A stretch of DNA of 64,000 bases, taken from NCBI GenBank assembly GCA_944390885.1, contig CALXRP010000003.1, positions 35,004 to 99,003 of the forward strand, given 5' to 3'. Source of the DNA: an uncultured Alphaproteobacteria bacterium (GTDB lineage: Bacteria > Pseudomonadota > Alphaproteobacteria > RF32 > CAG-239). Under the pieces are notes generated by a model. It ran no database searches. It was not told the DNA's origin and worked only from the letters and a program-made list of their open reading frames with translations. Both the position numbers and the translations under genes were made by a program. Shown piece after piece: positions 2,229 through 61,350 of this stretch (its first letter is position 1; every line of letters starts with the position of its first letter).

Positions 2229-2500
2229 TTTTTTCCTTATCTCTAAAATTCACTTTTTATTTATTATTCTTTTTCTTATTTCTTGTTTTTTATAATTTAT
2301 TTTTATTGTTACTTTTTGGGTGCAAAGAAGCTTTTTCTTACTTTTGCTTGACCAAAAGTAAGCAAAAGTCAATCCCAACCTCATTTTCTAAGCTTTCAGC
2401 CCAAAGTTAAAGTCGCTACGCTCCAATGCTCTGTACTTCACTATTACCCCTTTGGGCCAAAAGCTAAGAAATCATTCGGTAATCGGGCTGGTCAACTCCC
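2229..2500. repeat. MITE-like repeat, long copy, upstream of nrdD
   Basis: The ends (tttttccttatctctaaaattcacttttta ... aagaaatcattcggtaatcgggctggtcaactccc) recur almost exactly at 45249-45315. Here they are separated by an approximately 210-bp AT-rich core with a perfect hairpin (cttacttttg cttgac caaaagtaag). A GC hairpin cccctcaggcttgagggg lies at the right flank. Confidence 0.4.
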
Positions 2501-2613
2501 CCGCCCCTCAGGCTTGAGGGGAGAGGGGTTTCACTTTCGGTTTTTGCTCCAAAACCTAAGCTATTCGCAAAGGGCACCCAATCGTGCCGGATGAGGGATT
2601 GTGCATTAAAGTT

Positions 2614-3209
2614 TTGTCATTCTCGGGCTTGAAGTCGATAGTTGGTGAGAACGAGTGCAAATCTCTAGCTTCAGCTTAGATTTGTACGAAGTCTGAACCC
2701 TACGGGACGCAATTGCATTCGGCGTCGCGTGCCGCAGGCACTGGGACTGCCGGATAAAATCGCTGAGCTTGCGAAGTGCCAAGGGGCCCGCGTGCGGGAA
2801 TTTACACCCGAGAATCCACAGGCGACGGCCTGAGCGATCGGTTGTCGGAATTGTGCCCTGAGGATCGCGTTGCTCCATTGCTTTCCGCGGTTAAGATTGT
2901 GCTTTGAAGGGTGGATCCCCGGTATCTTTTTCTTACGTCATTGCCGGACTTGATCCGGCAATCCACGTTAATAAATTAGCTTTATTGTTGACCTGGATCC
3001 CCGGGTCACACCCTCAGGGTGACGCCAAATGGATCCCCGGGTCAAGCCCGGGGATGACATAATAAAAAACGCAGCCCGGGGATGACCTGCACGGCAGGCG
3101 CGCGGCAAGTTGACAGCACTGTACCACAGAGGCCGCGTTGCTATGGCGGGGTCTGTGAATGGCGTTGTGCTTTGAAGGGTGGATTGCCGGGTCGAAGCCC
3201 GGCAATGAC
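2614..3209. repeat. Cluster of GC-rich palindromic composite repeats (locus 1 of 3)
   Basis: Multiple copies of an approximately 29-nt palindrome, GTCATYSCCGGGCTTGACCCGGSRATSAC, are present in both orientations. Conserved modules also recur (ccacaggcgacggcctgagcgatcggttgtcggaattgtgccc; ctgcacggcaggcgcgcggc; ccgcgttgct..ggcgg..tgtgaatgg..ttgtgctttgaagggtggat). Near-identical modules occur at 19525-19855 and 59448-59872. Spurious ORFs 2606..2878, 2968..3234 and 3014..3247 lie inside. Confidence 0.6.
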
Positions 3210-3237
3210 ATAAAGAAAATAAGGCAGGATACAAAAG

Positions 3238-3285
3238 TTACTGCCAAGGATAGTCTTTAGCATCGATGAGTTTTCTTTCTACCAC
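3238..3285 (-). pseudogene. Duplicated 3'-terminal fragment of the 86-aa gene found intact at 59896..60156
   Basis: The minus-strand reading gives VVERKLIDAKDYPWQ-stop. About 41 of 45 nt match the 3' end of the intact gene (…MEIKLIDAKDYPWQ-stop). It sits immediately next to the GC-rich repeat cluster, as the intact gene does at locus 3. Confidence 0.5.
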
Positions 3286-3346
3286 CTAGACTATTTTCCT
3301 TAAAAATCAGCATAGAAAAAAGCACTCCGGAGAGTGCTTTTTTTGT

Positions 3347-5245
3347 TTAGTACCGCGGGCGGGTTTCTATTTCTTTGCCGATTTCACCGTTTGCAATGTA
3401 GTCATCAACACAATTTGCTCCGCGGCAGCGTTTCAGCACCGTGGCATTCCGGCCTTTGGTCAACCCTCTGACCTGCATTGACGGCACGTAGACTTCATCG
3501 ACAATAATCTTAAACGTAATGTAATTAACATTGCCGTACTCATCTATAATATAGACCTTCACATGATAGGTTCCGCCGTCTTTCGGCATCGGCGTTCCGT
3601 AGAACGTCATTGTTTTTTCATCGAAGGTCAGCCAATCCGGCAGCGGGCTGTCATCTATCAATCCGGCTTTAAATGTCAGGTTGCCGCGAGCATTGAGATC
3701 TTTCAGAGCATCTTCCGGAATGGTATAGAGATAATCCTGTCCGGTTTCCAGTTTTTGATCAGGAATGTCTTCCGTTGACAAATTAACCGGCGGACGTTTG
3801 GACGGCACATTCAACAGATACGGACGATTATCCGGCAGAAAATCGCCATCACGCCATTTTTCCAGCGTTGTATGCAGATAAACGGCAATTTTAGACGGTT
3901 TTTCACCCAACATATAATAAGGTAGTGCGTCAAGCCCCAGCGCAGCATAAAGGTTTCCGAGCGAGGCCTGTAGTTCGATATAGGCCTTAGAAGCTTTGAC
4001 CTCATCAGCAATGGCACGCGCGGCCTCCAACAAAGATTTCGAATCGCGGCTGCCCAGTTTTACCGTAATGTCTTCGGCAATGTCTTCCGATACGTTGGCG
4101 ATTTCAATATTAATCTGATAATCTTCCAGCGCCGACATATAAGCAGCCCAGCCGACATACAGCTGGCTTAAGACCAGGTTGGTCATCCGCTGGCGGCGCA
4201 AGGCTTCCAGCTCGCCTTCCCGCGGGTTTCTGACATCTTCAAAAACATGATAGCCGATTTCCTGAGCTTTGCGGCTCCAGACTTTGTTGTAATAGGAAGG
4301 GTTGCTTTGATAATCATTTTGAGTGGTGGATTTGAACTCCTGAATGGTAAACTCCAGGTTCTCGTCAATATTCACCATATCGCGCATTTTGAGTTCCGGG
4401 CGGTTGGTCAGAGCCAGCCATTCCATATCGGCCAGCGGCGTGCGAATATCCGGCAGGGCAAAATTGCCGTACAACTTGCCGACCAGTTTGTATTCCGTTG
4501 CCGGATGAAAACCCATTAAAGCGGCCAGTTTGGTCTCGGCCGTTTCCATTCCGCGTTTTAACTCGGACAAGTTTTTAACGGCTTCCATATATTCGCGCTT
4601 TAACACCAATTTATCTGTCGGCAGATACTGATTTAATTTTGCAAGGTCTTTGGCCTGAGCATTCAGCTCGTCAACCTCCAGCGTTAAGACCTCTATCATA
4701 TCATCAATCACCGGCAGCAGGCGCTGTGCCGTCAGAGCCTGCCAATAAAGCACGCGGGTTTCCTGCAGCAGGTTGTGAATAACTTTGCGGCTCTGCTCAA
4801 AAGCCAGATTTTTGCGGTATTCCTGATCGACGGTCTGATAATAAACCGTACTCATATCCAAAAGGTTCCAGGCCAGCCGGAGCTCGGAATTGGCATCGGA
4901 CAGAGAATCGGGGCTCAGGTATCCGGCCTGCCCCATAATCTCGGGGATTTGGTTGACCGGCGACTTTCCGGCCTTTATCAAACTTTCTTCATAACTGACA
5001 ACGCGGCGGGTAAAGTTATATTTCAAGGCCAGCGCCATTGTCATATACATATCTATCGGCTTTGAGATTTTGCGCGGCTGGTTTAAGTACATATTCTGCA
5101 TATCCACGTCGGCGCGGATTGCGCTGTCCCAATCGGAATAAGTCGCCGATGATACGGTTGTTTCACTAACGGAATATTCTTCGCGCGGGCCGCAAGAAAC
5201 AACAAAAAACATGCCAAAAACCAAACATGCCAATATTTTTTTCAT
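3347..5245 (-). CDS. TolC/NodT-family outer-membrane lipoprotein with C-terminal Ig-like (cadherin-like) domain
   Basis: Signal peptide with lipobox (FFVVSCG). Long coiled-coil-rich body with the two-repeat organisation typical of outer membrane efflux proteins. C-terminal approximately 90 aa (LPDWLTFDEKTMTFYGTPMPKDGGTYHVKVYIIDEYGNVN) resembles putative-Ig/dystroglycan-type domains. Terminator-like hairpin just downstream (about 3320-3345). Confidence 0.5.
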   Translation of the reverse strand: MKKILACLVFGMFFVVSCGPREEYSVSETTVSSATYSDWDSAIRADVDMQNMYLNQPRKISKPIDMYMTMALALKYNFTRRVVSYEESLIKAGKSPVNQIPEIMGQAGYLSPDSLSDANSELRLAWNLLDMSTVYYQTVDQEYRKNLAFEQSRKVIHNLLQETRVLYWQALTAQRLLPVIDDMIEVLTLEVDELNAQAKDLAKLNQYLPTDKLVLKREYMEAVKNLSELKRGMETAETKLAALMGFHPATEYKLVGKLYGNFALPDIRTPLADMEWLALTNRPELKMRDMVNIDENLEFTIQEFKSTTQNDYQSNPSYYNKVWSRKAQEIGYHVFEDVRNPREGELEALRRQRMTNLVLSQLYVGWAAYMSALEDYQINIEIANVSEDIAEDITVKLGSRDSKSLLEAARAIADEVKASKAYIELQASLGNLYAALGLDALPYYMLGEKPSKIAVYLHTTLEKWRDGDFLPDNRPYLLNVPSKRPPVNLSTEDIPDQKLETGQDYLYTIPEDALKDLNARGNLTFKAGLIDDSPLPDWLTFDEKTMTFYGTPMPKDGGTYHVKVYIIDEYGNVNYITFKIIVDEVYVPSMQVRGLTKGRNATVLKRCRGANCVDDYIANGEIGKEIETRPRY

Positions 5246-14161: not shown

Positions 14162-14983
14162 TTATTCATCCAAGGCGCGTGCTTCCGCATCTTCTGTTCG
14201 TTTGTTATCAAAGTAAACAAAGTACTGATACAAATGGGCATTGAATGACATTTTTACGGCCACATTCAAAAAAATAAGAATCAGGAATATGCCGGAAAAG
14301 ATCAGGCGCAAAACCAAACTGTCTGCCGCGATATTGCTGACAAACCCCAAAACCGTCATCAAAACGATTATCGGCAGGGTGATAACAATATTTCCCCAAA
14401 ATATCTTATTTGAATTTCCACGAGTGACTTCAAAAGATTTTTTTAGCGTCATATTTTCATTGTCCACCGCCGCGGCACTCAAAACCAGGCTTAAGCGTGA
14501 AAGCATTATCATTGCGATCAGAATTGCGACCAAAACCAACAAAAATATCTGTTTTGACATTACATCCTGATAAATATTGATATGCGCAGCCATGATCCCA
14601 ATAATCTGTCCGAAAATTACACCCGGGATCACATCTATCAATAACTGATACCCCAACACTTTGATTTCCCGTCCGCCAAAGCGCAAAGCAAACGGCCGCG
14701 GCGTATCTTTCAAAATTATAAACCGGGCAAATGCAACCATTACATAAACAGAAAAAAGCGTTGTCAAAGCCACGACGCCGATATAAGCCCCCTGCGTTGC
14801 CGTGCAGTTTTCCGTTTGTGTCAAAGAACAAAAAAGCGGCGTTCCAGCGACGGCTTCGTATCCGACAATCAAAACTCCCAGTATAATGATCGAAAATACG
14901 GTCTTTAAATTAACCAGAAAATATCCAAAACTCCGGCTCAGGCATTCCTGCCACGGCAAAATGATGATGTTTTCTTTATTCAT
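14162..14983 (-). CDS. Polytopic membrane protein, hypothetical
   Basis: 273-aa ORF with at least 6 hydrophobic helices. Overlaps the next ORF by 8 nt, suggesting an operon. Confidence 0.4.
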   Translation of the reverse strand: MNKENIIILPWQECLSRSFGYFLVNLKTVFSIIILGVLIVGYEAVAGTPLFCSLTQTENCTATQGAYIGVVALTTLFSVYVMVAFARFIILKDTPRPFALRFGGREIKVLGYQLLIDVIPGVIFGQIIGIMAAHINIYQDVMSKQIFLLVLVAILIAMIMLSRLSLVLSAAAVDNENMTLKKSFEVTRGNSNKIFWGNIVITLPIIVLMTVLGFVSNIAADSLVLRLIFSGIFLILIFLNVAVKMSFNAHLYQYFVYFDNKRTEDAEARALDE

Positions 14984-15845
14984 TGCATTTTTCTCCAGTT
15001 AAAAATAATTTCAGGCTATAGCTCAGTCCGGCCAGCCAGGCAGTTGCCATTAATATTAAAAAATCATAAATAAATTCTGACATAAAAGCAATATATAAAG
15101 GATGGGCTCCGGCTGTGCCGACATAACTTCCCGAAAGGCTGCCAGAAAGGTATACAAAAATCATCAGCATAAAAAACAATGAAATCAGAATTTTTAAATT
15201 ACTTCCGGAAGTCCGCCGCCAGATTTCCTTCCAACTCAAGCCGCTGCTTCCCAAAGCAGATTCTGCCAACAAAGACAACAGCCTGAGCCCAAAAAGCGGA
15301 ATAATAAACAGAACAAAGAAAAAAGCAAAAACCGTAACTTCTATCCGCCAATCCGGATTGGGCTGCCTTGATACCAGGTAGGAAAAAGAAATTATCGGGA
15401 AAATAAATAAACTCAAGAAACCGACAACCGTCAAAAATGTTTTGAAAAAACGACGTCCGGGTCTGAAGATAAGATTCAAGCTGAGCTTATCTCCGGAAAT
15501 CAGCCGCAGATAGCAGACCAAAAACCAAACACCTATGCCAAGTTTGAGTATAAAATCGGCAAGATAAAGACTGACAGAAGACGAACAATGAAAATCTCCC
15601 ACCTCGGATTGCAAAGTACAGATAAAATGGAAACCTGACAAGCAAGAAACAAGAGACATCAGACAACCAAATAAAAAAGCCAATCCGAGGAACCCGGAAA
15701 AAACATCTACAAAGAACCGATACGGATCCAGCAACAACGGCAAAAACTTTAACTTCGGCCAGCTTTTTTCGTTGGAATCTTTAGTTGATACAACCGGACA
15801 ACTTTGGCTGAACACAGAACAAAATTTGTTGAAAATATCTGCCAT
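14976..15845 (-). CDS. Polytopic membrane protein, hypothetical (possible paralogue of the previous)
   Basis: 289-aa ORF with multiple hydrophobic helices. Starts 2 nt after the dnaE stop. Confidence 0.4.
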   Translation of the reverse strand: MADIFNKFCSVFSQSCPVVSTKDSNEKSWPKLKFLPLLLDPYRFFVDVFSGFLGLAFLFGCLMSLVSCLSGFHFICTLQSEVGDFHCSSSVSLYLADFILKLGIGVWFLVCYLRLISGDKLSLNLIFRPGRRFFKTFLTVVGFLSLFIFPIISFSYLVSRQPNPDWRIEVTVFAFFFVLFIIPLFGLRLLSLLAESALGSSGLSWKEIWRRTSGSNLKILISLFFMLMIFVYLSGSLSGSYVGTAGAHPLYIAFMSEFIYDFLILMATAWLAGLSYSLKLFLTGEKCNE

Positions 15846-15846
15846 T

Positions 15847-18800
15847 TTACAGCTCCTTTACATAAGAAACACCCGGAAGCCCGCGGATTTTGCTCAAAAT
15901 ATCATTGGCAAAAGCGTAGCCTCCCGCCAGTTGGATACGGATATCCCAATCATTGTTTTCCGGTTTTAAATATATCTTATTAACGCCGTTTCTATCATGG
16001 CGCAGAATTTCTTTTAACGGCGCAACAGCCTCGACACTGTTCAGCCCGATGATCAGTCCGTTTACTCCGTCAGCAATTGCCTGATCCAGGGTTTCGACCG
16101 AATTAATCATAACCCGAGGGTTAGCGCCTTCTTCCTGCTTTTCAACCGTCACACCGACCAGAAGCGGCAGTCCTGAATTGATGGTGTCTTCATATTTTGC
16201 CAGCAAGTCAGAGAACAAAATTCCCTCAAAACCGCTGGATGCGTCCGACAAACCGAGAAAAGCATATTTGTTGCCGTTTTTGCTGATGCGCTTTTGAAAA
16301 GTAGTAACGCAGCCGGCCAGTTTGGCACGGACAGTGTCTCCGACCTTAACGCCGTTCATAACTTCCGCACAGCTTTTAACCCCCAAACGCTCCATGCCGG
16401 AACGATAGCTGTCTAACGGATGCGCCGAGAGGTAAAAGCCTACGGCCTCGGCCTCGAGTTTGAGTTTTTCCAATTCAGGCCAGTCGGGCTTTTCTGCCAG
16501 TTTGACTTTTGACTGGAGTTCTTCTGTCCCGAACAGAGAAGACTGCGAGCTGGTTTTCAGCTCATTGGCAGAAGAAATATGCTGCATAATCGTATCAACA
16601 TTGGCAAAAAGTTTGCCGCGGTTTTTCTCCAGGCAATCGAAAGCGCCGGCTTTAATCATATTTTCCAGCTGGCGGCGGTTGCTGTTGGCCAGCGGCATCC
16701 GGTGGATGAAATCAGAAATATCCTTAAACAGGCCGCCCTGTTTGCGGATCTCTTCAATTACTTTCATATTAGCCATACCCACGCCTTTAATCGCGGCCAG
16801 CGCATAACGAATATTACCGTCTTCCACCGTAAAGTCGGCGCCGGATTTATTGATGTCCGGCTGCAAAACCTTAATGCCCATTTTTTTACATTCTTCTTTG
16901 TAAAAAAGCAGCTTGTCGGTATTGGTGATATCAAACGCCATGATGGCGCACATAAACTCGACAGGATAATGCGCTTTCAGATAAGCGGTCTGGTATGAAA
17001 TCAGCGAATAGGCCGCGGCGTGAGATTTGTTAAAACCATAGGACGCAAATTTTTCCATCTGGTCAAAAATTTTGGTGGCGACGTCGGCGTCAATTCCTTT
17101 GGCAACGGCACCTTCGGTAAACATTTTGCGCTGTTTCGGAATCTCGTCGCGCATTTTTTTACCCATAACCTTACGCAGCTTATCCGCACCGCCCATCGTA
17201 TAGCCGCCCAGAGCCTGGGCAATTTTCATAACCTGTTCCTGATAAACCATAATGCCATAGGTTTCATCAAGAATCGGCGCAAGATCCGGGTGGAGATAAG
17301 TTATCTCTTCTTCGCCGTGCTTGCGGCGAATGTAGCTCGGAATATTGTCCATCGGCCCCGGGCGGTACAATGATACGATAGCGATCAAATCTTCAAAACG
17401 GTCCGGCTTGATTTGTTTGTGAACATCCTGCATACCGGCAGATTCAAACTGGAATACGCCGATTGTATCGCCCCGCTGCATCAGTTCATAAGTCGGCTTG
17501 TCATCAAGCGGAATATCACTCATAATCAGCTCGACGCCATAATCTTTTTTTACCCAATCGACGGCGCGCTGAATGACGGTGAGGGTTTTTAAGCCCAAGA
17601 AGTCAAACTTAATCAGGCCGGTTTCTTCAACAAATTTCATATCATACTGGGTAACCGGCATATCGGAGCGCGGATCTTTATACAGCGGTGTCAATTCTTC
17701 CAACGGACGGTCACCGATAACCACACCGGCGGCATGAACACCGGAGTGGCGGTATAAACCTTCCAATTTCATGGCGATGTCAAAAAGTTTGTTGACCTGC
17801 GGGTCGTTAACGCGCATTTCTTCCAATTCCGGCACCTGGTCGAGAGACTCCTGTAAGGTCGGATTTTTACCCTGAACGCCGGGAGGAATCATTTTACTGA
17901 TGCGGTCGGCCTGGGAATAAGGCATTTGCAAAACGCGGGCAACGTCGCGAATCACCGCCTTGGACTGTAGCTTACCGTAAGTAATAATCTGCGCGACATG
18001 ATCATAGCCGTATTTTTTTTGAACATATTCGATTGTTTTGCCGCGATTTTCCTGACAGAAGTCAACGTCAAAGTCCGGCATATTGACACGTTCCGGATTT
18101 AAGAAACGTTCAAACAGCAGGTTTAATTTTATCGGATCCAAGTCGGTAATCCGGAGCGACCAGGCAACAATTGAACCGGCACCGGAGCCACGTCCCGGCC
18201 CGACGGGAACGCCGTGGTCTTTTGACCATTGGATAAAGTCAGACACGATGAGAAAATATCCCGGGAAACCCATTTTTTTGATGACGCTTAACTCATATTC
18301 CAAGCGGGCGTAATATTCTTCATCAATTTTCTTGCGTTCTTCTTCCGTCATCTCCGGCGTATAAACCGTGGCTTCCATACGTTTCCGCAGTCCCAAATGC
18401 GCCTGTTCGTCAATATAGTCATCCTGGGTTTTGCCGTCCGGACATTCAAAAATCGGCAGCAGCGGGTTGACCTTTGAAGAAAGATAATTGCAGCGAATGG
18501 CAATGTTCACGGTATTTTGCACCGCTTCCGGCAGATCTTTGAACAGTTCAACCATTTCTTCCTGCGAGCGCAGGCGGTTGTTCGGCGAAAAACGTTTGCG
18601 GTTCGGGTTGGCAACAACTTCACCCGCGGCAATGCAAACCAGTGCGTCGTGCGCCTCGTACATGTCGGTATCAAAAAAGAAAGCCTCGTTGGTTGCCACC
18701 AGCGGAATATTGTATTTATAGGCCAAATCGATAAACGTATCTTCCGTCTTTTGTTCTTCTTCCAGGCCGATACGGGCTATTTCCATATATAAGCGGTCGC

Positions 18801-19317
18801 CGAAATATTTTTGCAATTCCAGCAGCGTGCTCTCCGCCTCCGGCGCGCGGTTTTCCAGCAGCAAACGGCCTATCGGGCCTTCGACGCCGCCGGTCAGCAT
18901 AATCAGCCCGGCATTGAATTTTTCCAGATCCGCCATGGTAATTTGCGGTTTTTCCTGCGGGTTCGGCAAATCAAGATAAGCCCGTTTCATCAGGTGCATA
19001 ATATTGCTATAGCCCTCGGCGTTCATAACCAGCAAAACAATCTTATCCGGTTCGACGATTTTTCCTTTGCATTTGAGCAAATCCTGCGAATCGGGATTGC
19101 GCAGATAGAACTGAGAACCGAGAATCGGTTTAACCCCTTCATCGGAAGCATATTTGGAAAAAGCTTTTCCGCCGAAAATATTGGCCGTATCGGTTACGGC
19201 AATTGCCGCCACGCCCTCATCATGAAGCCGGTGGATCAGTTTGGGCACAAGCATTGCGCCCTCAGACAAAGAATAAGCGGTATGCACCCGCAGATGTACA
19301 AATTTCGGTTCTGACAT
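15847..19317 (-). CDS. dnaE: DNA polymerase III alpha subunit
   Basis: 1156 aa. N-terminal PHP domain (KFVHLRVHTAYSLSEGA), the polymerase core and a C-terminal OB fold. Length and motifs are typical of DnaE. Confidence 0.95.
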   Translation of the reverse strand: MSEPKFVHLRVHTAYSLSEGAMLVPKLIHRLHDEGVAAIAVTDTANIFGGKAFSKYASDEGVKPILGSQFYLRNPDSQDLLKCKGKIVEPDKIVLLVMNAEGYSNIMHLMKRAYLDLPNPQEKPQITMADLEKFNAGLIMLTGGVEGPIGRLLLENRAPEAESTLLELQKYFGDRLYMEIARIGLEEEQKTEDTFIDLAYKYNIPLVATNEAFFFDTDMYEAHDALVCIAAGEVVANPNRKRFSPNNRLRSQEEMVELFKDLPEAVQNTVNIAIRCNYLSSKVNPLLPIFECPDGKTQDDYIDEQAHLGLRKRMEATVYTPEMTEEERKKIDEEYYARLEYELSVIKKMGFPGYFLIVSDFIQWSKDHGVPVGPGRGSGAGSIVAWSLRITDLDPIKLNLLFERFLNPERVNMPDFDVDFCQENRGKTIEYVQKKYGYDHVAQIITYGKLQSKAVIRDVARVLQMPYSQADRISKMIPPGVQGKNPTLQESLDQVPELEEMRVNDPQVNKLFDIAMKLEGLYRHSGVHAAGVVIGDRPLEELTPLYKDPRSDMPVTQYDMKFVEETGLIKFDFLGLKTLTVIQRAVDWVKKDYGVELIMSDIPLDDKPTYELMQRGDTIGVFQFESAGMQDVHKQIKPDRFEDLIAIVSLYRPGPMDNIPSYIRRKHGEEEITYLHPDLAPILDETYGIMVYQEQVMKIAQALGGYTMGGADKLRKVMGKKMRDEIPKQRKMFTEGAVAKGIDADVATKIFDQMEKFASYGFNKSHAAAYSLISYQTAYLKAHYPVEFMCAIMAFDITNTDKLLFYKEECKKMGIKVLQPDINKSGADFTVEDGNIRYALAAIKGVGMANMKVIEEIRKQGGLFKDISDFIHRMPLANSNRRQLENMIKAGAFDCLEKNRGKLFANVDTIMQHISSANELKTSSQSSLFGTEELQSKVKLAEKPDWPELEKLKLEAEAVGFYLSAHPLDSYRSGMERLGVKSCAEVMNGVKVGDTVRAKLAGCVTTFQKRISKNGNKYAFLGLSDASSGFEGILFSDLLAKYEDTINSGLPLLVGVTVEKQEEGANPRVMINSVETLDQAIADGVNGLIIGLNSVEAVAPLKEILRHDRNGVNKIYLKPENNDWDIRIQLAGGYAFANDILSKIRGLPGVSYVKEL

Positions 19318-19469
19318 TTATTATAAATTCCTTGCTCAGATAATAGCGATTTTAGCGAACGGACTCAATAAAAAAAAGCGCCGGTTTTGAAATATCAACA
19401 GGAGTGGTATTATTTTACTTTTATACCGTTTACTTTAGCCAAAATCCCCGCCCCATTTTTCAATATAGC

Positions 19470-19498: not shown

Positions 19499-19524
19499 AT
19501 CTTTATTGTCGTTCTTAAGCATCT

Positions 19525-19855
19525 GTCATCCCCGGGCTTTGACCCGGGGATCCACCTGCACGGCAGGCGCGCGGCGAATTGAATACACTGTGCTCAAGAG
19601 ACCGCGTTGCTATGACGGGGTTTGTGAATGACAAGGTGCTTTGAAATATTTGTCATTCTCGGGCTACTTGTTTTTCAAGTCATCCCCGGGCTTAACCCGG
19701 GGATCCAGAATGACAATAAAGCTAATTTATTTGACTTGGATTGCCGGGTCAAGCCCGGCAATGACAAGAAAGAAACAAGCCCGGGGATGACGAAAGAAAA
19801 AAAGAGCCCGGCAATGACTAAAAAAATAAAGCGCCCGGCAAAGACAAAGAAAAAA
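19525..19855. repeat. GC-rich palindromic composite repeat cluster (locus 2), forming the 5' leader of the Cys-rich protein gene
   Basis: Contains gtcatccccgggctttgacccggggatccac, gtcattctcggg, gtcatccccgggcttaacccggggatccag and ggattgccgggtcaagcccggcaatgac. It ends in 3-4 tandem half-sites, agcccggSRatgac plus an A-run. ORF 19628..19885 inside it is spurious. Confidence 0.6.
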
Positions 19856-21295: not shown

Positions 21296-21302
21296 ATTAA
21301 AT

Positions 21303-21342
21303 AAGATCTCTCTCCAGACTATGGAGAGAGATCTCTTTTTAA
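21303..21342. terminator. Bidirectional rho-independent terminator between the Cys-rich gene and prfA
   Basis: aagatctctctcc agactatgg agagagatctctt followed by ttttt; A/T runs on both sides. Confidence 0.5.
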
Positions 21343-21441
21343 GATAAGACGTTAGACTGATATTTTTTTGGAAGATTTTAAAAATATTACGCTTGTCCGG
21401 TGATTAATATTCTTCTTTACAAGCAACTGCCGGACTTTTTT

Positions 21442-27536: not shown

Positions 27537-27917
27537 TTCACTCTTTATTTATTATCCTCGGAAGTTTTTCTCTTTCCTTTTTTCCCTTTCTTTCTGTTTC
27601 TTACTTATGTTCTTTTCGCTACTTTTGTCATGCTACAAAAGGCCGGAGGCCGGCAGGCACAAAAGCAAAAAGCTAGCCCTGAACTCGTTTTCTAAGTCTT
27701 CGTGAAAAAGTTCAGGCCGTCTAAGCACAAGGCTAAGACGGCAAGAAGGCACATAGTGTTTTTAATTTTCTCTTTTTCACAAAGACTAAGAAGTACTCGT
27801 TAAAGGGCATTTCTAACGCCCCCTGTCCCCCTCTTAGCAAAGAGGGGGAATTGTTGTAATATGAAAATTCCCGGTTAAGGCCGGGAATTTTGAAACAAAA
27901 CCTCAGAAAAGACACTT

Positions 27918-34479: not shown

Positions 34480-34590
34480 ACTTTTCTTATTAACCGCTTA
34501 AATTCATCATAATTTTCAGTCCGATAACTGCACAGTATCGCGCACCATTTATTGAAATTCCGCATCTATTGCGGATTTTTTGTTTTTAAA
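34480..34590. repeat. Cassette-flanking repeat, copy 1 (between the R-M genes and GNAT)
   Basis: cttttcttattaaccgcttaaattcatcataattttcagtccgataactgcacag...ttccgcatctattgcggatttttt. It ends in a hairpin plus T-run (ccgcatctattgcgg tttttt). Confidence 0.5.
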
Positions 34591-36162: not shown

Positions 36163-36270
36163 CCATTTTCTTGTTAATTGTTTAAGTTCATCATAAAATT
36201 CAGTCTGATAAACTACACAGCAAAAGCACAGCATTTTTTAAGATTTCCGCATTTATTACAGATTATTTGA
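36163..36270. repeat. Cassette-flanking repeat, copy 3
   Basis: ttttcttgttaattgtttaagttcatcataaaattcagtctgataaactacacagcaaaagcacagcattttttaagatttccgcatttattacagattatttg is about 80% identical to copy 1 over about 100 nt. ORF 36275..36514 next to it is probably spurious. Confidence 0.5.
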
Positions 36271-36516
36271 CTTTTTGATGTTTTTTAAGAACTCTGTAAA
36301 ATCTTTCGTTTGCTCAGGAGTAACATTTTTGTTTTCATATTTTTCCGGCGGGAAAAAGTATGTCCCTTGGGTCGGTTCCGGTCTAAATTACCTAAATAAA
36401 CGGACTTTTTATCATCCAACAGCAACATTTTGTGCTCAGTATTCTTTTTTTGCTTTTAATTTTTATATAATAAATTTATGCTGTGGGCATGGTCTTAACA
36501 ATTACGGAGGATAATT

Positions 36517-44031: not shown

Positions 44032-45273
44032 TTAAAAGAAAGTCTTTGCCTTTTGCAGGGCGTTGATGAAAATGTCAATGTCTTCCCGGGTGGAATAAAG
44101 CCCCAAAGAAGCACGAGCCAGCGACGTGTATCCCATTCTTTCCACCAGCGGCTGGGCGCAATGGTGCCCGGTGCGGACAGATACACCCTCTTTATCCAGA
44201 ATAAAGGCCACATCTTGCGGATGAATCCCTTCCAAAACAAAAGAAAAAACACCGCCTTTGCCTTCTGCCGTGCCGATTTCCTTAAATCCGCCGACTTCCG
44301 AAAAACGGCCGCGGGCATAAGCCGTCAGCTCCGTTTCATGCGCCGTAATGTTTTCCATTCCCAAATCTGCCATATATTGCAAGGCACGTCCCAGGCCGAT
44401 GGCTTGAACCATGGCCGGCGTTCCGGCTTCAAAACGGGCGGGAACTTCATCAAAAGTTGTTTTTTCATAAGTTACTTTTTCGACCATATCGCCGCCAAAC
44501 TGATAAGGCGGCATCGAATCGAGCAAGGCATATTTGCCGTACAAAACGCCAATGCCGCTCGGGCCGTAAGTTTTGTGTCCGGAAAAAGCAAGAAAATCGC
44601 AGTCTATGGCCTGAACATCCAATGCCTGATGAACAATAGCCTGGCAGGCATCAACCAGAATTACGGCACCGGCCTTATGCGCCTGCTCCGCCATTTTGCG
44701 CACCGGAAAGATCGTTCCCAGCACGTTGGACATTGCGGTTACGGCAACTATTTTGGTTTGCGGGCCAAGCAGCTTTAAATATTCTTCTTCCAGATAGCTG
44801 CCGTCATCGCCGATTTTAAAAATTTTCAAGACAGCGCCGGTTTCGGCCGCAATCATTTGCCACGGGATCAGATTGGCATGATGTTCGGCCTGGGAGATTA
44901 AGATTTCATCTCCCGGTTTTAAGAATTTTCGTCCCCAGCAGGCGGCAACCAGATTGATTGCTTCCGTAGCGTTACGGGTAAAAATAATTTCCCGGTTATC
45001 AGCGGCATTAATAAAATTTTGCACAATTTTACGGGCGTTTTCATATTCCAGCGTCATATGCTCGGACAGATAGTAAGCGCCGCGGTGGACATTGGCATAA
45101 CAAGTCGAGTAAAGGCGGGTTATGGTATCAATAACGCATTGGGGCTTTTGCGCCGAAGCGGCAGAATCGAGAAATGTATTCGGCTTGCCGTTTATTTTTT
45201 GCGCCAATACCGGAAAATCCTGACGAATTTTATATACATCGTACATAATTTTTTCCTTATCTCTAAAATTCAA
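44032..45273 (-). CDS. sufS: Cysteine desulfurase SufS (class V aminotransferase, group II)
   Basis: PLP-lysine region (AFSGHKTYGPSGIGVLYG), catalytic Cys loop (RTGHHCAQP), 413 aa. The track starts at TTG; the ATG is 9 codons in. Confidence 0.9.
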   Translation of the reverse strand: MNFRDKEKIMYDVYKIRQDFPVLAQKINGKPNTFLDSAASAQKPQCVIDTITRLYSTCYANVHRGAYYLSEHMTLEYENARKIVQNFINAADNREIIFTRNATEAINLVAACWGRKFLKPGDEILISQAEHHANLIPWQMIAAETGAVLKIFKIGDDGSYLEEEYLKLLGPQTKIVAVTAMSNVLGTIFPVRKMAEQAHKAGAVILVDACQAIVHQALDVQAIDCDFLAFSGHKTYGPSGIGVLYGKYALLDSMPPYQFGGDMVEKVTYEKTTFDEVPARFEAGTPAMVQAIGLGRALQYMADLGMENITAHETELTAYARGRFSEVGGFKEIGTAEGKGGVFSFVLEGIHPQDVAFILDKEGVSVRTGHHCAQPLVERMGYTSLARASLGLYSTREDIDIFINALQKAKTFF

Positions 45274-45315
45274 TTTTTAAGAAATCATTCGGTAATCTGC
45301 CTCATCAACCCTTCT
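45249..45315. repeat. MITE-like repeat, short copy, in the sufD-sufS spacer (overlaps the sufS start)
   Basis: tttttccttatctctaaaattcaattttta immediately joined to agaaatcattcggtaatctgcctcatcaaccc. These are the two ends of the 2229-2500 element with no internal core. Confidence 0.4.
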
Positions 45316-54085: not shown

Positions 54086-54769
54086 ATGACGGAAAATGCA
54101 GCGGGAAAAACAAGAAAAAACCAGAAAAAGACACGGCGAAAAAAAGAAAACATTTTCAAAAATTCTCGACAGACAGAATCGAAACCTAAAAGAATCTTAG
54201 AGACAGAAAGAAGAGCAAAAGCTCAACCGCGCGTATCGGCAGCATCTCTTTCTGAGCCTTGCTCTTCCTGCTTAAAGCCTTATGAAATTTATATTATTGT
54301 TGCCGTTTTGGCTCTTTTGGCTTTGATTGCTTATACAATCAGCCAAAGCTCTCTGCCTGAAAAAACAGATTTGCCCCCAAATGAAACAACGGAAACAGAA
54401 GAAAGCGAAATGCCGGCGGGACCAGTCAGTATTCTTGGTTTTACTGAACTGAAAGATCAGTACGCTCTTTGTGCCAATTTGTTGTTTCAAGCCCAATATG
54501 ATACAGGGAATATCGCCGGCAGTATGGAGATTTTACAAATTGCCAATCAGAAATATCAGCGTCTGACAGGGGAGCTGATTGAACAAAATCCGGCCATGCA
54601 GGCAGAAGAAATAGAAATTTTACGGCAAATTATTCATGATGCAGAACATCCGGAGGCCAAGCAGCACCTTATTGAGGACTGTACCGAAGCTATTACGATT
54701 TTTGAAGAAATGTATAATCGGCAAGAAATGATTGATTTTAACGCTGCCAAAGAAAATGCCGGAGATTAA
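54086..54769 (+). CDS. Hypothetical single-pass membrane protein with highly basic N-terminus
   Basis: K/R-rich N-terminus (KTRKNQKKTRRKKEN), one TM helix (IYIIVAVLALLALIAYTI), acidic C-terminal domain. Confidence 0.4.
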   Translation: MTENAAGKTRKNQKKTRRKKENIFKNSRQTESKPKRILETERRAKAQPRVSAASLSEPCSSCLKPYEIYIIVAVLALLALIAYTISQSSLPEKTDLPPNETTETEESEMPAGPVSILGFTELKDQYALCANLLFQAQYDTGNIAGSMEILQIANQKYQRLTGELIEQNPAMQAEEIEILRQIIHDAEHPEAKQHLIEDCTEAITIFEEMYNRQEMIDFNAAKENAGD

Positions 54770-54784
54770 CTTCGGCATTTATTG

Positions 54785-55762
54785 TCAGCAAATTACATCG
54801 AATTCGCTTTTCAGATCTCTTTCAAACATAGACTTCAAAACGCTTTTAATATCGGCTTTTTCATATACGGCTTTATAAAGCGCCTGACAGATCGGCATAT
54901 CTATTCCCTGTTCGTCAGCAATTAACTTTACCGCTTTTAATGTAGCCACACCTTCGGCCAGTTTGCCAAAGTTCTCTCCTCTTGCAAACATTTCGCCGAA
55001 TTTGCGATTATGGCTATGCGGAGAGAATAAGGTTGCCTCATAATCGCCCAAATGAGCCAAGCCATAGGCATTTTGCGGATTGCCGCCAAAATGTTTGATA
55101 AAACGTCCGACTTCTATCGGAGCGCGTGCCATTAATGCGCCTTTCAAACCGTACCATTCCAAACCATCTAAAATGCCGGCAGCAATACCGACGACATTTT
55201 TTAAGGCTGCGCCAATCTGATTGCCGATCATATCTGTTCCGTAATAAAAACGTATCAGATCACTTGACAGGAGTTTGATCAGACGGTCTTTGGTTTCCGG
55301 CTCGTAGCTGTCAATCACGGCGCAGGATGGAACACCTTTCATATAATCTTGTACATGACCCGGGCCGACAATAATTGCGACATGAATATCTTGCCGTATT
55401 TCTTCCTGAAATACCTGCTGTAAAGTTTTGGCACTCGGTTCTTCCAGCCCTTTCATTGCCAAAAGAAAGGTTTTTCCGGACAAATCATACCCATTCAGCT
55501 GACGTGCCAATGAACGCAGATGCTGGCAGCCGATAGAAACGATGATTATATCATTTTGTAAAACTTCCGCAACATCCTCGTGCAGTACCATATTGTCGGA
55601 AAGTTTAAGATAGGCATTTTTACGGGTATCACGGAGTTCGATAAAATTCGGCGAAGTCGGAATATCATACATATCGACTTGTTCAAAACCGGCATAGTTT
55701 CCGGCATACCAGCCCAGAAACGTTCCCCAGCGTCCGCATCCGATTAATGAAATTTTCTTCAT
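54785..55762 (-). CDS. gpsA: NAD(P)H-dependent glycerol-3-phosphate dehydrogenase
   Basis: Rossmann start (KISLIGCGRWGT), catalytic region and C-terminal helical domain; 325 aa. Confidence 0.85.
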   Translation of the reverse strand: MKKISLIGCGRWGTFLGWYAGNYAGFEQVDMYDIPTSPNFIELRDTRKNAYLKLSDNMVLHEDVAEVLQNDIIIVSIGCQHLRSLARQLNGYDLSGKTFLLAMKGLEEPSAKTLQQVFQEEIRQDIHVAIIVGPGHVQDYMKGVPSCAVIDSYEPETKDRLIKLLSSDLIRFYYGTDMIGNQIGAALKNVVGIAAGILDGLEWYGLKGALMARAPIEVGRFIKHFGGNPQNAYGLAHLGDYEATLFSPHSHNRKFGEMFARGENFGKLAEGVATLKAVKLIADEQGIDMPICQALYKAVYEKADIKSVLKSMFERDLKSEFDVIC

Positions 55763-55875
55763 GGCTTGTCCTTTGCAAAAGTTCGGGAATTGTAATAGTT
55801 ATTTTATAAGATATTCTGAAAAGATTGGCAAACGCTTTATTGACTTATTGTCAAAAAATGGAGAGATGAAGAATT

Positions 55876-56250
55876 TTAAGACAGGCTGCTTTTTTTGGCA
55901 AGCTGCCGGTTGATGATGGCGCCTACATAGTCAAACTCTTCAAAAGACCGGTAGGCAACATCATGACGTTTTTTATCATAATCATAAAAGACTTTGTTGG
56001 CCAGGCTGTCTATTGCCTCATCTATTTTCTGAAAAGCAGCATTATAGTCATTATTGTAGTGATTACGAGATTTTTTCTTGACGATTTCATGATAGGCGGA
56101 GATGACTTTTAAAGTTTCGTCGGCTGAGTTTGCATAGCCTTTTTGTTCAAAGTCATGCATAATTTTTGCGGTTGTCTGATAGAAACATTTATTGGTTAAT
56201 ATGCTTCTTTGTTTTTTATTGTTACCATCAATAATCATTACACCATCCAT
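55876..56250 (-). CDS. Hypothetical protein (124 aa)
   Basis: ORF only; no domain recognised. Confidence 0.3.
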   Translation of the reverse strand: MDGVMIIDGNNKKQRSILTNKCFYQTTAKIMHDFEQKGYANSADETLKVISAYHEIVKKKSRNHYNNDYNAAFQKIDEAIDSLANKVFYDYDKKRHDVAYRSFEEFDYVGAIINRQLAKKSSLS

Positions 56251-56368
56251 GGTTTCAAATTATAATAATGATGTAGCATAAACTTTCGGATTTTTCAACA
56301 GTAAAATAAAAAAAACGGCGGAACATAAGGGAAAACCTTATTTCCGCCGTGGGATAAATCAGGCCCGA

Positions 56369-57307
56369 CTATTCAACATTTCCAAAAGGATTAACGTTTT
56401 TAGCGGCTTCCTGAGTTTTGCGCAAATCAAACAAATTCAGGATAACGGCCGAAACATAAATAGAAGAATATGTTCCGACAACCACACCCCAAACGATTGT
56501 GAACGAGAAACTGCGCAAAGTGTCTCCGCCAAAAATCAGCAAAGACAATGCAGCAAAGATTGTGCTCAACCCTGTCAGCAAAGTTCTGGAAAAAATATCA
56601 TTGATACTTTTATTTAACAGAGCTTCTTGCGGCATTTTGGTAAATTTGTGCAGGTTTTCCCGAATACGATCATAGGTCACTACGGTATCATTTACCGAAT
56701 AACCGGCCAATGTCAGAATTGCGGCAATGGTTGTCAGGCTGAAATCCATTCCGAAGAGGGATAACAAGCCCAAAGTAATGATAATATCATGAAACAGACC
56801 GAGCAAAGCCCCTAATGCAAACTGCCATTCAAACCGTATCCAGATATAAGCAGAAATGGCAAGGATGGCTATCAGAGAAGCTACGGCACCGTCAATTTTC
56901 AACTCATTACCGACCTGGGGGCCTACGGTTTCAATCCGGCGATATTCAACATCACTGCCCAAAACTTCTTTGATGTTTTTGACTGCAATGCGCTGCGCTT
57001 CCTCGTCCAGATTATCGGCCTCGGCACGAATCATCAATTCGTCCCCTTTATCGCCGATTGTCTGCAAATTGACTTCGCCGATATTAACACTTTCCAGCTT
57101 GTTTCTGATCTCTGTTAAATCAAAAGGCTGCTCGCTTTTTATCTCCATCAAAATGCCGCCGGAAAAGTCAATGCCAAAATTAAAGCCCTTTACGGCAATC
57201 AAGGCAACAGACAAGACAAAGCTGACAATAGAGATGCCATAAGTCAGTTTTTTGGCGCCCATAAAATTGATGTTTGTGTCTTTGGTAATCCAACTAAAAA
57301 TTCTCAT
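56369..57307 (-). CDS. secF: Protein translocase subunit SecF
   Basis: 312 aa, 6-TM SecDF family. Immediately downstream of secD. Confidence 0.9.
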   Translation of the reverse strand: MRIFSWITKDTNINFMGAKKLTYGISIVSFVLSVALIAVKGFNFGIDFSGGILMEIKSEQPFDLTEIRNKLESVNIGEVNLQTIGDKGDELMIRAEADNLDEEAQRIAVKNIKEVLGSDVEYRRIETVGPQVGNELKIDGAVASLIAILAISAYIWIRFEWQFALGALLGLFHDIIITLGLLSLFGMDFSLTTIAAILTLAGYSVNDTVVTYDRIRENLHKFTKMPQEALLNKSINDIFSRTLLTGLSTIFAALSLLIFGGDTLRSFSFTIVWGVVVGTYSSIYVSAVILNLFDLRKTQEAAKNVNPFGNVE

Positions 57308-57319
57308 TTTTCTTATTCC

Positions 57320-58870: not shown

Positions 58871-58882
58871 ATCGCTGCCTTC

Positions 58883-59275
58883 TTATTTTTTTACTTTTTT
58901 ATTAGAATTTGCTGCTTTATCAAGCATTTTTGATTTAGCCTCGAGAGCGGCCTTCAGCAGTTCTGCCGTCAAAACCTCGCGAACAGTAGCGCGATTGATA
59001 ACAACATTCACCCCTTCAGCAATTTCAACAGTCAAATCCATCGGATCATCAGCTTTAACAACTTTTGCATAGATTCCGCCGCCGGTGATGATGTGGTCGC
59101 CTTTCTTCAAAGCTCCGACCATCGCTTCATGCTGCTTAATCTTTTTTTGCTGCGGACGAATCAGCAGAAAATAAAAAATCAAAAAGATTAAACCAAGCTG
59201 GATAATTGTTCCGGCTATTGAGCCCGTTGGGGCAGCAGCTCCGGAAACCTGAGCAAAAGCTTCACTAATGAACAT
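58883..59275 (-). CDS. yajC: Preprotein translocase subunit YajC
   Basis: TM helix IIQLGLIFLIFYFLLIRPQQKK plus the conserved GDxVxTxGGixG motif (KGDHIITGGGIYAKVV). Confidence 0.85.
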   Translation of the reverse strand: MFISEAFAQVSGAAAPTGSIAGTIIQLGLIFLIFYFLLIRPQQKKIKQHEAMVGALKKGDHIITGGGIYAKVVKADDPMDLTVEIAEGVNVVINRATVREVLTAELLKAALEAKSKMLDKAANSNKKVKK

Positions 59276-59447
59276 TGTTTTCTCCTATTTATCAAAATTT
59301 TGCGTGCTTACTATACACCAAATAACACTTTTCTCAACCATAAAAATAGAGAAATTCAAAATTTTCAAGATTCTTCCTGTTTCTCATTTCTTGTTTTATA
59401 AATTTATTTATTGTTTGGGAAAACAAACAAGTTCTTTTCTTACTTTT

Positions 59448-59872
59448 CCCGGCGGGGGATGTGAAGGGTTTTGTGCTTTGAAGGGTGGATTGCCGGTATC
59501 TTTTTCTTACGTCATTGCTGGGCTTGACCCGGCAATCCACGTTAATAAAAATGCCTTATGATTGACTTGGATCCCCGGGTCAAGCCCGGGGATGACTTTA
59601 AAAAAATAAAAAGCCGGGGATGACCGGTACGACCGGTGGCGCTCAATCTGTAACATTATGCTGCAGAGACCGCGTTGCTCCGGCGGAGTTTGTGGAGGTT
59701 TTTGTGCTTTGAAGTTTATGTCATTCTCGGGCTTGACCCGAGAATCCACAGGCGACGGCCTGAACGGTCAGTTGTCGGAATTGTGCCCCGTACCCCGCGT
59801 TGCTCCGGCATTTTCTGTGAATGGCTTTGTGCTTTGAAGGGTGGATTGCCGGATCAAGTCCGGCAATGACAT
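59448..59872. repeat. GC-rich palindromic composite repeat cluster (locus 3), abutting the intact 86-aa gene
   Basis: Modules match locus 1 (ttgtgctttgaagggtggattgccgg; gtcattgctgggcttgacccggcaatccac; ttgacttggatccccgggtcaagcccggggatgac; ccacaggcgacggcctgaacggtcagttgtcggaattgtgcccc; ccgcgttgctccggc). ORFs 59268..59561, 59507..59749 and 59675..59869 inside it are spurious. Confidence 0.6.
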
Positions 59873-59895
59873 AAGGAAAATGATTGCAAAAAATA

Positions 59896-60156
59896 TTACT
59901 GCCAAGGATAGTCTTTGGCGTCGATGAGTTTTATTTCCATGACCTTATCCAGGAATGAAAACAGATATACATATTCTTCCATTCTCACATGGCAGGTGTT
60001 TCTTCTCAATTTTTCTATCCGCCCTTCCATGAAGCTTATATGGTTGGACAATTCGCTGCTGGTCAGCCCTCTTTCCGTTATTATCCGGTCTAACTCCGCA
60101 TTGCAATAACTTCGGAAAGTCTTAAACCATTCTTTTCTGTATTTTCTTGATAGCAT
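59896..60156 (-). CDS. Small hypothetical protein (86 aa); its 3' end is duplicated at 3238-3285
   Basis: Intact ORF MLSRKYRKEWFKTF...MEIKLIDAKDYPWQ with 4 Cys/His residues (C18, H39, C55, H56). Flanked by the repeat cluster. Confidence 0.45.
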   Translation of the reverse strand: MLSRKYRKEWFKTFRSYCNAELDRIITERGLTSSELSNHISFMEGRIEKLRRNTCHVRMEEYVYLFSFLDKVMEIKLIDAKDYPWQ

Positions 60157-60292
60157 TTCTTTCGCTCCTTAAATTTGTTAAAACAAAATCCGCCTAAAAA
60201 CAGGCGGATGGAACTCAAAAACTGCGATAAATCAGTCACCGTTATTCGTTACGCAAGCGCACTTATTTCCGGTACTCCGCCTAAGCGGATTT

Positions 60293-61243
60293 TTATCCTA
60301 AATAAGATTTCGGATTAACGGCTTTTTTGCCTTGGCGGATTTCAAAATGCAGCTGCGGCGAAGCAACGCCCCCGGTTGTTCCGACTGTTGATATTTTTTC
60401 TCCGCGAGCAACCCGTTGGCCTTTTTTAACCAATATTTTTTCATTATGGGCATAAGCCGTTACCCAGCCGTCATCATGCTTTATCAGGATCAGATTGCCA
60501 AAGCCTTTCAGCTCGTTTCCGGCATAAGCAACCGTTCCTTTATCTGCTGCGCGGACTGCCGTTCCTTTGGCGGCTTTGATATTAATACCGTCATTGTTCC
60601 GGCCTTTGGCAATCGGCCCGAAATTTGATATAACCGGCCCTTTAACCGGCCAGAGGAATTTGCTTTTGCGATTTTTAGAAGGCGGGGTATAAGTGTTTTT
60701 GGCCACTTTTGTTTTTGTTGTTGTGGTTTTCTTTTTGACCGTTTTAGAAGAAGAGGCTGCTTTTGATGTTGTTTTCTTTGATGTCTGTGCTTTGCGTGCC
60801 GAAGTCTGAGAAACGGAAGCAATCTGGGTTTCTCCGCCAACGATACTGTCCGGAAGCTGCAGGCGCTGTCCGACGGCTAAAGTATAGGGCGGGCGGAGGT
60901 CATTGGCCTTGCTCAGAGAATTGATGTTTACATTATAGCGTTTGGAAATATTGTATAATGTATCGCCTTTGGCAACAACATGGTAGCGGGCGCTTGGCAA
61001 ACGCACAACCTGTCCGATACGCAGACTGTAAGGAGGCTTTAAGCCGTTTAGTTCAATAATCTCGCGCAGCGGCAGATCATAGCGGCGGGAGATGCTGTAT
61101 AGCGTATCGCCCTTTTGAACAACAACCGAAGATGGCGCAGGGCCGCCCCAAAGATTGTAATTGAACAGCTGTATACGGCCGCTGTCATAAGAACAGCCGC
61201 TTAACATTGTCAACATTAATGTCAAAAGCACAAACTTTTTCAT
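60293..61243 (-). CDS. nlpD: LysM-domain M23 peptidase lipoprotein (NlpD/EnvC-like murein hydrolase activator)
   Basis: Lipobox LSGCS, two LysM repeats (VVQKGDTLYSISRRY; VVAKGDTLYNISKRY), a T/K/S-rich linker, and a C-terminal M23 domain (YAHNEKILVKKGQRVARGEKISTVGTTG). Confidence 0.8.
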   Translation of the reverse strand: MKKFVLLTLMLTMLSGCSYDSGRIQLFNYNLWGGPAPSSVVVQKGDTLYSISRRYDLPLREIIELNGLKPPYSLRIGQVVRLPSARYHVVAKGDTLYNISKRYNVNINSLSKANDLRPPYTLAVGQRLQLPDSIVGGETQIASVSQTSARKAQTSKKTTSKAASSSKTVKKKTTTTKTKVAKNTYTPPSKNRKSKFLWPVKGPVISNFGPIAKGRNNDGINIKAAKGTAVRAADKGTVAYAGNELKGFGNLILIKHDDGWVTAYAHNEKILVKKGQRVARGEKISTVGTTGGVASPQLHFEIRQGKKAVNPKSYLG

Positions 61244-61350
61244 ATCTTAACTCCTAGCATAAGATAGTTAATTTTTGTTTACATTCAGAAAAAGCTTGAT
61301 TTCCTGCATTCCGGGAGTATCTTTATGAGTCCCGGCTTAAGGAGAAAAAT

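Follow-up and report, generated by a model that had tools for sequence, protein, structure and literature searches.

A 50-nt gene end with a palindromic repeat tail is probably the deletion relic of a multi-copy cassette in uncultured gut Alphaproteobacteria

The window, by which we mean the whole 64-kb stretch of DNA that was analysed, has the context of an ordinary anaerobe chromosome, with nrdD, dnaE, ptsP, a prfA-type release factor gene and yajC-secD. It carries one intact copy of a small gene, an 86-aa ORF at 59896..60156 on the minus strand (locus 3), and at 3238..3287, also on the minus strand (locus 1), a stump holding the last 15 codons and the stop of that gene. The match is ungapped, window 3238-3287 (plus strand) aligning with 59896-59945 (plus strand), the reverse complement of the final 15 codons and stop of the ORF, and the identity to the locus-3 gene end is 40/45, 42/48 or 44/50 according to the length taken. 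The 45-nt copy announced by the original prediction is real, at an identity of 40/45 and not 41/45, and its similarity proves well above chance in alignment. Translated on the minus strand, the stump reads VVERKLIDAKDYPWQ between two stops where the intact gene has KVMEIKLIDAKDYPWQ and its stop; the upstream stop lies in frame directly before the copy, the start codon is absent, and of the six codons that differ, three encode the same residue. Homology runs on past the spacer and takes in the first repeat units (3133-3287 against 59795-59945, 82.7% over 156 nt, blastn E 4e-37), and in the whole window an nhmmer profile made from 44 family members recognises just two places, at 60295-59894 (E 2e-110) and at 3287-3237 (E 5.8e-8).

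On its 3' side, the stump is followed by a mosaic tail (2614..3237, minus strand), which is built from two kinds of unit: REP-like hairpins, each consisting of GTCAT, a 9-bp stem, a 5-6-nt loop, the stem again and ATCCA (2937-2965, 3030-3058 and 3180-3209), and type A units of about 100 nt, which occur in either orientation and here read, in reverse complement, TTCAAAGCAC...GCCATAGCAACGCGG... A type C repeat, of a kind about 250 nt long, lies further out (2334..2607, minus strand; 85-92% identical to units at cassette copies L043 and L033), and an AT-rich distal end (2229..2333, minus strand) closes the tail; at 76%, 2269-2345 is similar to the far end of the tail at locus 3 (59377-59447). At about 2617-2818, an insertion of about 100-165 nt interrupts the loop of a hairpin unit (GTCATTCTCGGGCTTGAA...CCCGAGAATCCAC). 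The insert recurs in L023 and, in a shorter inverted form, in L050, and it may be a small element for which the hairpin loop is the target. A 31-nt piece of the distal tail (2229-2259) also matches, at 97%, the start region of a class-V aminotransferase gene (45249-45279).

The tail of the locus-3 copy (59377..59895, minus strand), with hairpins at 59514-59536, 59571-59593, 59723-59745 and 59845-59867 and with type A units, adjoins the intact gene as the original prediction had it, and carries no terminator after the stop. A third cluster of hairpin and type A repeats (19524..19818, plus strand) lies between dnaE and a 465-aa gene, and the family profile (nhmmer) detects no trace of a cassette in it; it ends in a run of half-hairpins (CCCGGGGATGAC, CCCGGCAATGAC, CCCGGCAAAGAC) with A-rich spacers. 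All ten REP-like hairpins of the window sit in these three clusters (2940-3206, 19528-19762 and 59514-59867), all of them intergenic. As in REP/BIME-like elements, they are short, imperfect, extragenic palindromes with conserved flanks, repeated in both orientations and interleaved with other motifs, and many more are present in related tails. Elsewhere in the window, type C fragments occur at 27610-27833, in the interval from an isochorismatase-family gene to ptsP, where neither a cassette nor a stump is close by. Two intergenic segments of about 110 nt (34482-34587 and 36166-36276), 77% identical to each other and unrelated to the cassette repeats, adjoin Fic/DOC, GNAT acetyltransferase and N6 DNA methylase genes.

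The intact ORF belongs to a family that we observe only in metagenome-assembled genomes (MAGs) of gut Alphaproteobacteria. A first protein search returned 12 clusters, nearly all of 86 aa, with identities of 69-95% and every one from uncultured gut Alphaproteobacteria, and a scan of one genome per species located 52 loci in only five gut MAGs: 19 in MGBC133411 (mouse gut), 12 in a Hadza human-gut MAG, 11 in RGIG9125 (water-deer), nine in MGYG-HGUT-04444 and one in RGIG4730. Four of these genomes hold 9-19 copies each. Among 1.84 billion representative proteins, a profile search found no relatives outside the family, its only two representative clusters both belonging to it, and an exact look-up gave no record of the protein of the window. 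The ORF is under purifying selection: none of 48 distinct copies has an internal stop, 56.5% of their differences fall at third codon positions, and single-nucleotide codon changes are synonymous to non-synonymous in the proportion 17110:7453.

As to what the protein does, HTH_26 (Cro/C1-type) matches 48 of 49 members, at best with E 0.0014 and in every case below the gathering score, and an hhalign comparison with XRE domains places the match in the helix–turn–helix register at a probability of 6.8%. AlphaFold2, run on a 13-sequence alignment, gives three helices at a pLDDT of 63, too poor for a fold search; the family profile drew only coiled-coil noise from the PDB, and searches of NCBIfam and PHROGs gave no match and weak matches only, respectively. 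A DNA-binding regulator would fit these matches, and the small regulator proposed in the original prediction is plausible to the extent of a sub-threshold Cro/C1-type HTH similarity. The same proposal had pointed to four Cys/His residues and to a toxin. C18 is the same in all of 49 members and H39 in at least 90% of them, but positions 55 and 56 vary, and with no conserved set of four ligands, a zinc-binding or Cys-His small protein finds no support; nor did any of the searches return a match in support of a toxin.

An alignment of about 50 copies sets the boundaries of the unit in which the ORF is found. This cassette, which appears to be undescribed so far, has four parts: a sigma-70-like promoter, a leader of about 155 nt with a terminator, the 86-aa ORF and a repeat tail. 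Homology starts sharply, some 8 nt before the promoter (AAAATCCGCTTGCAAAA, 17 nt, TAATAT or TATGAT), and the leader closes with an intrinsic terminator about 25 nt before the ribosome-binding site (RBS); full examples are L033 5775-5985, L001 5810-5985 and L043 5784-5985. We assessed covariation on a sequence-based alignment of 46 distinct leaders, with slid pairing partners as controls. The 50-pair structure is paired in 92.6% of cases against 37-49% in the slid controls, 27 of its pairs show compensatory changes against 5-12, and the covariation score, no higher than 0.09 in those controls, reaches 0.384. The leader is a true structured RNA. Within it, a segment B (GGCGGAG) has two alternative pairing partners: segment A (UCCGC), which lies upstream, and segment C (CUCCGCC), which lies downstream and overlaps the terminator at its base. 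Of the terminator stem, the B:C helix covers no more than the basal 3 bp. The three segments covary together in three flavours, and the B:C helix is paired in 100% of 368 cells, as compared with 40-61% when slid. Such an arrangement suggests that the leader would act as a terminator/antiterminator switch.

At gathering thresholds, Rfam has no match for the window, L001, L007 or L012. Permissive E-values brought up sRNA-Xcc1 (20.8 bits, L007) and SgrS (21.9 bits, L012), both terminator-driven and inconsistent and dismissed as noise, together with the Wolbachia sRNA WsnRNA46 on hairpin repeats of the window (2923-3075, minus strand), likewise noise at 25.2 bits against a gathering score of 65.3; this last weak match may mean that similar palindromic repeats are widespread in Alphaproteobacteria. 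The leader is a candidate for a new class of cis-regulatory RNA or sRNA. It is not tied to a single ORF family, since in L031 (MGBC133411, 10670-11176) a second promoter and leader precede a different ORF of 90 aa. That ORF has sub-threshold similarity to HTH_25 and HTH_3, belongs to a family of only two clusters, and is followed by the same type of terminator and a type A tail; hhalign finds no significant match between it and the 86-aa family. In L018 (MGBC133411, 5673-5938), an insertion of about 266 nt breaks the leader between profile positions 152 and 155.

The repeats are bound to the cassette to a striking degree. Comparing loci within each of four genomes, with positions relative to the ATG, we find repeat coverage of 0-4% from -6000 to -300, about 100% from -200 to the stop, a fall from 90% to 6% between +300 and +1200, and 0 past +1500, so that within-genome repeats occur almost only in the 3' tail of the cassettes. 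In most copies, a second terminator, AAAAAAGCGGGA-N6-TCCCGCTTTTTT, follows the stop and is itself followed by a variable repeat mosaic; a type C repeat is present downstream of many copies, among them L033 and L043. The original prediction offered, as one of two possibilities, that the repeats target the 3' end of this gene, and took the lack of a genome-wide association of the two as grounds for refutation. At the level of the family the proposal holds, the repeats being almost confined to the 3' tail, and the association is strong across the four genomes. The junction between stop and repeats differs among copies, with a terminator followed by type A, by type C or by a hairpin, or an inverted type A unit directly at the stop, and repeats have therefore built up there more than once. 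In L044, a hairpin lies inside the ORF and invades its last codons. No consistent terminal inverted repeats or target-site duplications, as expected of MITEs, were seen in the tails by eye. Of the 52 MAG contigs, 14 end within 500 nt after the gene.

Grouping the copies by their upstream flank yields 16 groups common to different genomes, and because these groups recur, occupancy of the sites must be old. Nevertheless, the flank-ortholog is the closest gene match at only 4 of 39 loci: copies within a genome reach up to 97-99% identity, as against 73-95% for flank-orthologs. We infer that the copies are homogenised by gene conversion or ectopic recombination. This has a bearing on the junction type without a terminator, in which a hairpin unit and then type A come soon after the stop, and which is confined to the stump, the locus-3 copy and L001, the last being the closest relative (95% at the amino acid level) in a different flank context. 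The stump and locus 3 look co-duplicated and share a junction type because copies are homogenised within genomes. Other members of the family have decayed each in a different way, as seen in the 5'-truncated leader of locus 3, the leader insertion of L018 and the hairpin invasion of L044.

The locus-3 copy is itself damaged at its 5' side. What precedes the ORF (60157..60296, minus strand) is the 3' two-thirds of the leader, comprising P3, the inner hairpins, the 3' strand of P2, the terminator (60188-60209) and the RBS; nothing is left of the promoter, of P1 or of the 5' strand of P2, and the stop codon of an M23 peptidase gene abuts. Its positional ortholog L043, in the Hadza MAG, has the full promoter and leader behind an M23/LysM peptidase flank that is 74% identical to that of the window. 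The 72 nt at L043 5784-5855 are missing from the window, and the M23 stop codon therefore abuts the P3 hairpin. The motif AAAATCCGCTT stands at the -35 region of most cassette copies and at the P3 hairpin in the window (60266-60296 compared with L043 5784-5870), and a direct-repeat deletion between these two occurrences of the motif would yield exactly the leader of the window, which has no promoter. Alternatively or in addition, the motif might be a binding site. The remaining leader combines a GGCGGAG segment B with a segment C of the CUCCAUC type, a combination found in none of the 46 intact leaders, and the intact ORF would be expressible only by read-through from the M23 gene.

The surroundings of locus 3 are likewise rearranged between genomes. 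Comparing window stretches 14162-19379, 54431-59366 and 60283-63999 with L043 and with L050, another copy of the same Hadza MAG, we find that the upstream flank of locus 3 matches L043 and its downstream flank, on the yajC-secD side, matches that of L050 (81%), the upstream flank of L050 itself matching window 19379-14162. Because the flanks of L043 and L050 are mixed in this manner, cassettes appear to coincide with synteny breakpoints or recombinant joints, although misjoins of MAG contigs at repeats could produce the same picture. A further copy, L060, occupies the ortholog of window position ~21296-21441, where the window has none.

For the stump, the most informative comparison is with L033, in the mouse-gut MAG MGBC133411, where the orthologous site has an intact promoter, leader and gene. 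L033 2881-5747 corresponds to window 6156-3299 at 85% identity and takes in the hairpin terminator (3316..3345) of the upstream 632-aa Ig-domain gene (3347-5245, minus strand), which is kept in both and marks the flank as orthologous. The next stretch, L033 5748-6211, with the promoter, the leader and codons 1-70, is missing from the window, where 11 unmatched nucleotides (3288-3298) remain. The stump (window 3287-3238) then corresponds to L033 6212-6261 at 86% identity, and L033 6318-6453 and 6870-7046 correspond to window 2593-2458 and 2509-2334, respectively, as type C repeats. Comparison with L033 thus puts a deletion junction at 3288..3298 (minus strand), with about 460 nt lost. An ATAAGG motif lies near both deletion endpoints in L033 and is a possible microhomology. 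The stump shows significant homology to part of a functional gene, has neither a start codon nor a remaining ORF, and has an intact counterpart at the orthologous position of a related genome; it is an ordinary pseudogene relic and not a functional element, and as such an annotation detail. Ordinary relics in families under concerted evolution likewise combine a truncated copy, an intact ortholog elsewhere and homogenised paralogs, and the relic by itself is unremarkable.

We therefore read the stump as what a deletion has left of one copy in a multi-copy cassette family, a reading to which we assign a probability of roughly 0.85, the sole orthologous comparator being L033 from another species and MAG contigs being liable to misjoins at repeats. 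The history would be as follows. A cassette with its promoter, structured leader of about 155 nt with a terminator, 86-aa ORF and palindromic, mosaic repeat tail would have stood between the Ig-domain gene and nrdD; a deletion of about 460 nt would have run from just upstream of the promoter through codon 70, leaving only the last 15 codons and the tail. Family members would meanwhile have kept to conserved chromosomal sites while swapping sequence by gene conversion or ectopic recombination, and REP/BIME-like repeats would have piled up specifically downstream of cassette copies. We infer deletion as the direction of change, as the simpler history, because the L033 site holds a full cassette in the same orientation and the same distal type C repeat. 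The 50-nt stump cannot single out its nearest copy (44/50 to locus 3, 43/50 to L033 and 43/50 to L001), and the tail beside it differs from that of L033 in having no post-gene terminator and about 640 nt more of hairpin and type A repeats, so that further events must be assumed. The original prediction had offered, as its other possibility, that a unit of gene and repeats had been duplicated and then decayed. This is essentially right, except that no simple local duplication took place: with L033 intact at the same site, the stump is the remnant of an old member of a multi-copy family.

Other origins for the 50-nt piece can be weighed against this history. A conversion or ectopic-recombination tract, entering from another cassette through repeats already present at locus 1 and stopping 50 nt inside the donor gene, would require no cassette ever to have stood there. 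Copies clearly exchange sequence, the junction of the stump is of the type found in the locus-3 copy and L001 and unlike that of the positional ortholog L033, and the cluster at 19524-19818 demonstrates that repeats can exist without a cassette. Against this, a complete cassette in the same orientation, with the same type C repeat at its distal side, is found at the orthologous L033 site, and conversion after the deletion may still have reshaped stump and tail; we regard the tract as an unlikely origin, if the least unlikely of those considered here. Chance similarity between low-complexity intergenic DNA and a gene end has only the short length of the piece in its favour and is refuted by the blastn and nhmmer matches (E 4e-37 over 156 nt and E 5.8e-8) and by the preserved reading frame and stop; what probability we leave to it is negligible.

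Two further possibilities make the piece mobile. If a mobile repeat element (a MITE or a REP mosaic) included the 3' end of the gene, that end would spread with the repeats, as might be read from the uninterrupted homology between repeat unit and gene end and from the tight linkage of the repeats to the 3' side of the gene. The window, however, has a single stump, and about 530 kb of related loci contain no further 3' stump, which argues against the piece belonging to such an element; a metagenome scan with the 3' end of the gene recovered one more intact cassette and no stumps, and another such scan, for the exact deletion junction, gave no match. The orphan cluster at 19524-19818 has no gene piece, the junction from stop to repeat differs widely among copies, and neither terminal inverted repeats nor target duplications were seen, so we hold this origin to be improbable. 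Slightly more improbable still is that the cassette as a whole is actively mobile and that the stump came from an insertion that was aborted or truncated. Many copies per genome, a sharp upstream boundary of homology at the promoter and flanks that differ between genomes could all be explained in this way, but selection on the promoter would leave an equally sharp boundary, and the 16 copy groups that share flanks across genomes speak for old occupancy. Nor do the copies have a transposase or integrase beside them, and none was found on plasmids, phages or viral contigs: tblastn and blastn searches against plasmids and phages, including blastn against PLSDB, gave no cassette match, and three viral-contig matches to the leader pattern were rejected, as they covered the first hairpin only (E 0.08).

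Several known systems resemble parts of the cassette. REP/BIME elements are known from enterobacteria and pseudomonads, and Neisseria has intergenic mosaic elements flanked by dRS3 palindromes. Like these, the tails consist of short GC-rich palindromes (here a 9-bp stem, a 5-6-nt loop and GTCAT...ATCCA flanks) in both orientations, interleaved with other short repeats in extragenic clusters downstream of genes; unlike these, which are spread over many intergenic regions, the tails keep almost entirely to the 3' side of one gene family. With attenuation leaders and riboswitches, the cassette has in common a promoter, a structured leader, an intrinsic terminator some 25 nt ahead of the RBS and alternative pairings, A:B or B:C, that all covary. 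It differs from them in having no Rfam match and in a B:C helix whose overlap with the terminator stem is limited to the basal 3 bp.

By its layout, the closest analogue of the cassette is the Brt/Trp system of Bartonella (Tu et al. 2016, PMC5387305). Brt RNAs are structured RNAs of 194-203 nt, each lying immediately upstream of a small XRE-type HTH gene (Trp) whose product of 108-152 aa has a clear XRE domain; 2-34 copies occur per Bartonella genome in repeat-rich plastic regions, the system is reported to be genus-specific, and a riboswitch-like cis role has been proposed for the RNA (PMC5387305). Shared with the cassette are a structured RNA with a terminator right before a small HTH-type gene, many copies per genome (2-34 in Bartonella, 9-19 for the cassette), and an occurrence in repeat-rich plastic regions of host-associated Alphaproteobacteria. 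The proteins show no detectable homology, the search of 1.84 billion representatives having returned only the cassette family and no Trp, and the 86-aa protein with its sub-threshold HTH stands against a Trp protein that is longer and clearly XRE. Brt RNAs are also longer than the leader of about 155 nt, to which they are likened by layout and not by RNA sequence, and they cluster in one 277-kb region, whereas cassettes are scattered among housekeeping genes.

Taken together, we see somewhat better than even odds for a broader account, in which the stump would be the scar left by a hitherto undescribed regulatory cassette that uncultured gut Alphaproteobacteria carry in many copies. Its new class of leader, about 155 nt long with mutually exclusive covarying pairings, would control orphan mini-HTH proteins (of 86 aa and once of 90 aa). 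Present in 9-19 copies at conserved sites and homogenised by gene conversion, the cassette would nucleate assembly-breaking repeat tails at synteny breakpoints, and the Brt/Trp circuit of Bartonella might be its convergent counterpart. The leader supplies a covariation-supported structured RNA without an Rfam entry, and the 86-aa proteins an orphan family without a Pfam entry. That one gene family is tied almost exclusively to REP-like repeats gives a handle on how such repeats are seeded and spread, and the tails explain why, in this lineage, MAG contigs frequently end just after the gene and why synteny breaks there. The layout of a structured leader and a mini HTH gene in many copies per genome is, on this evidence, not confined to Bartonella.
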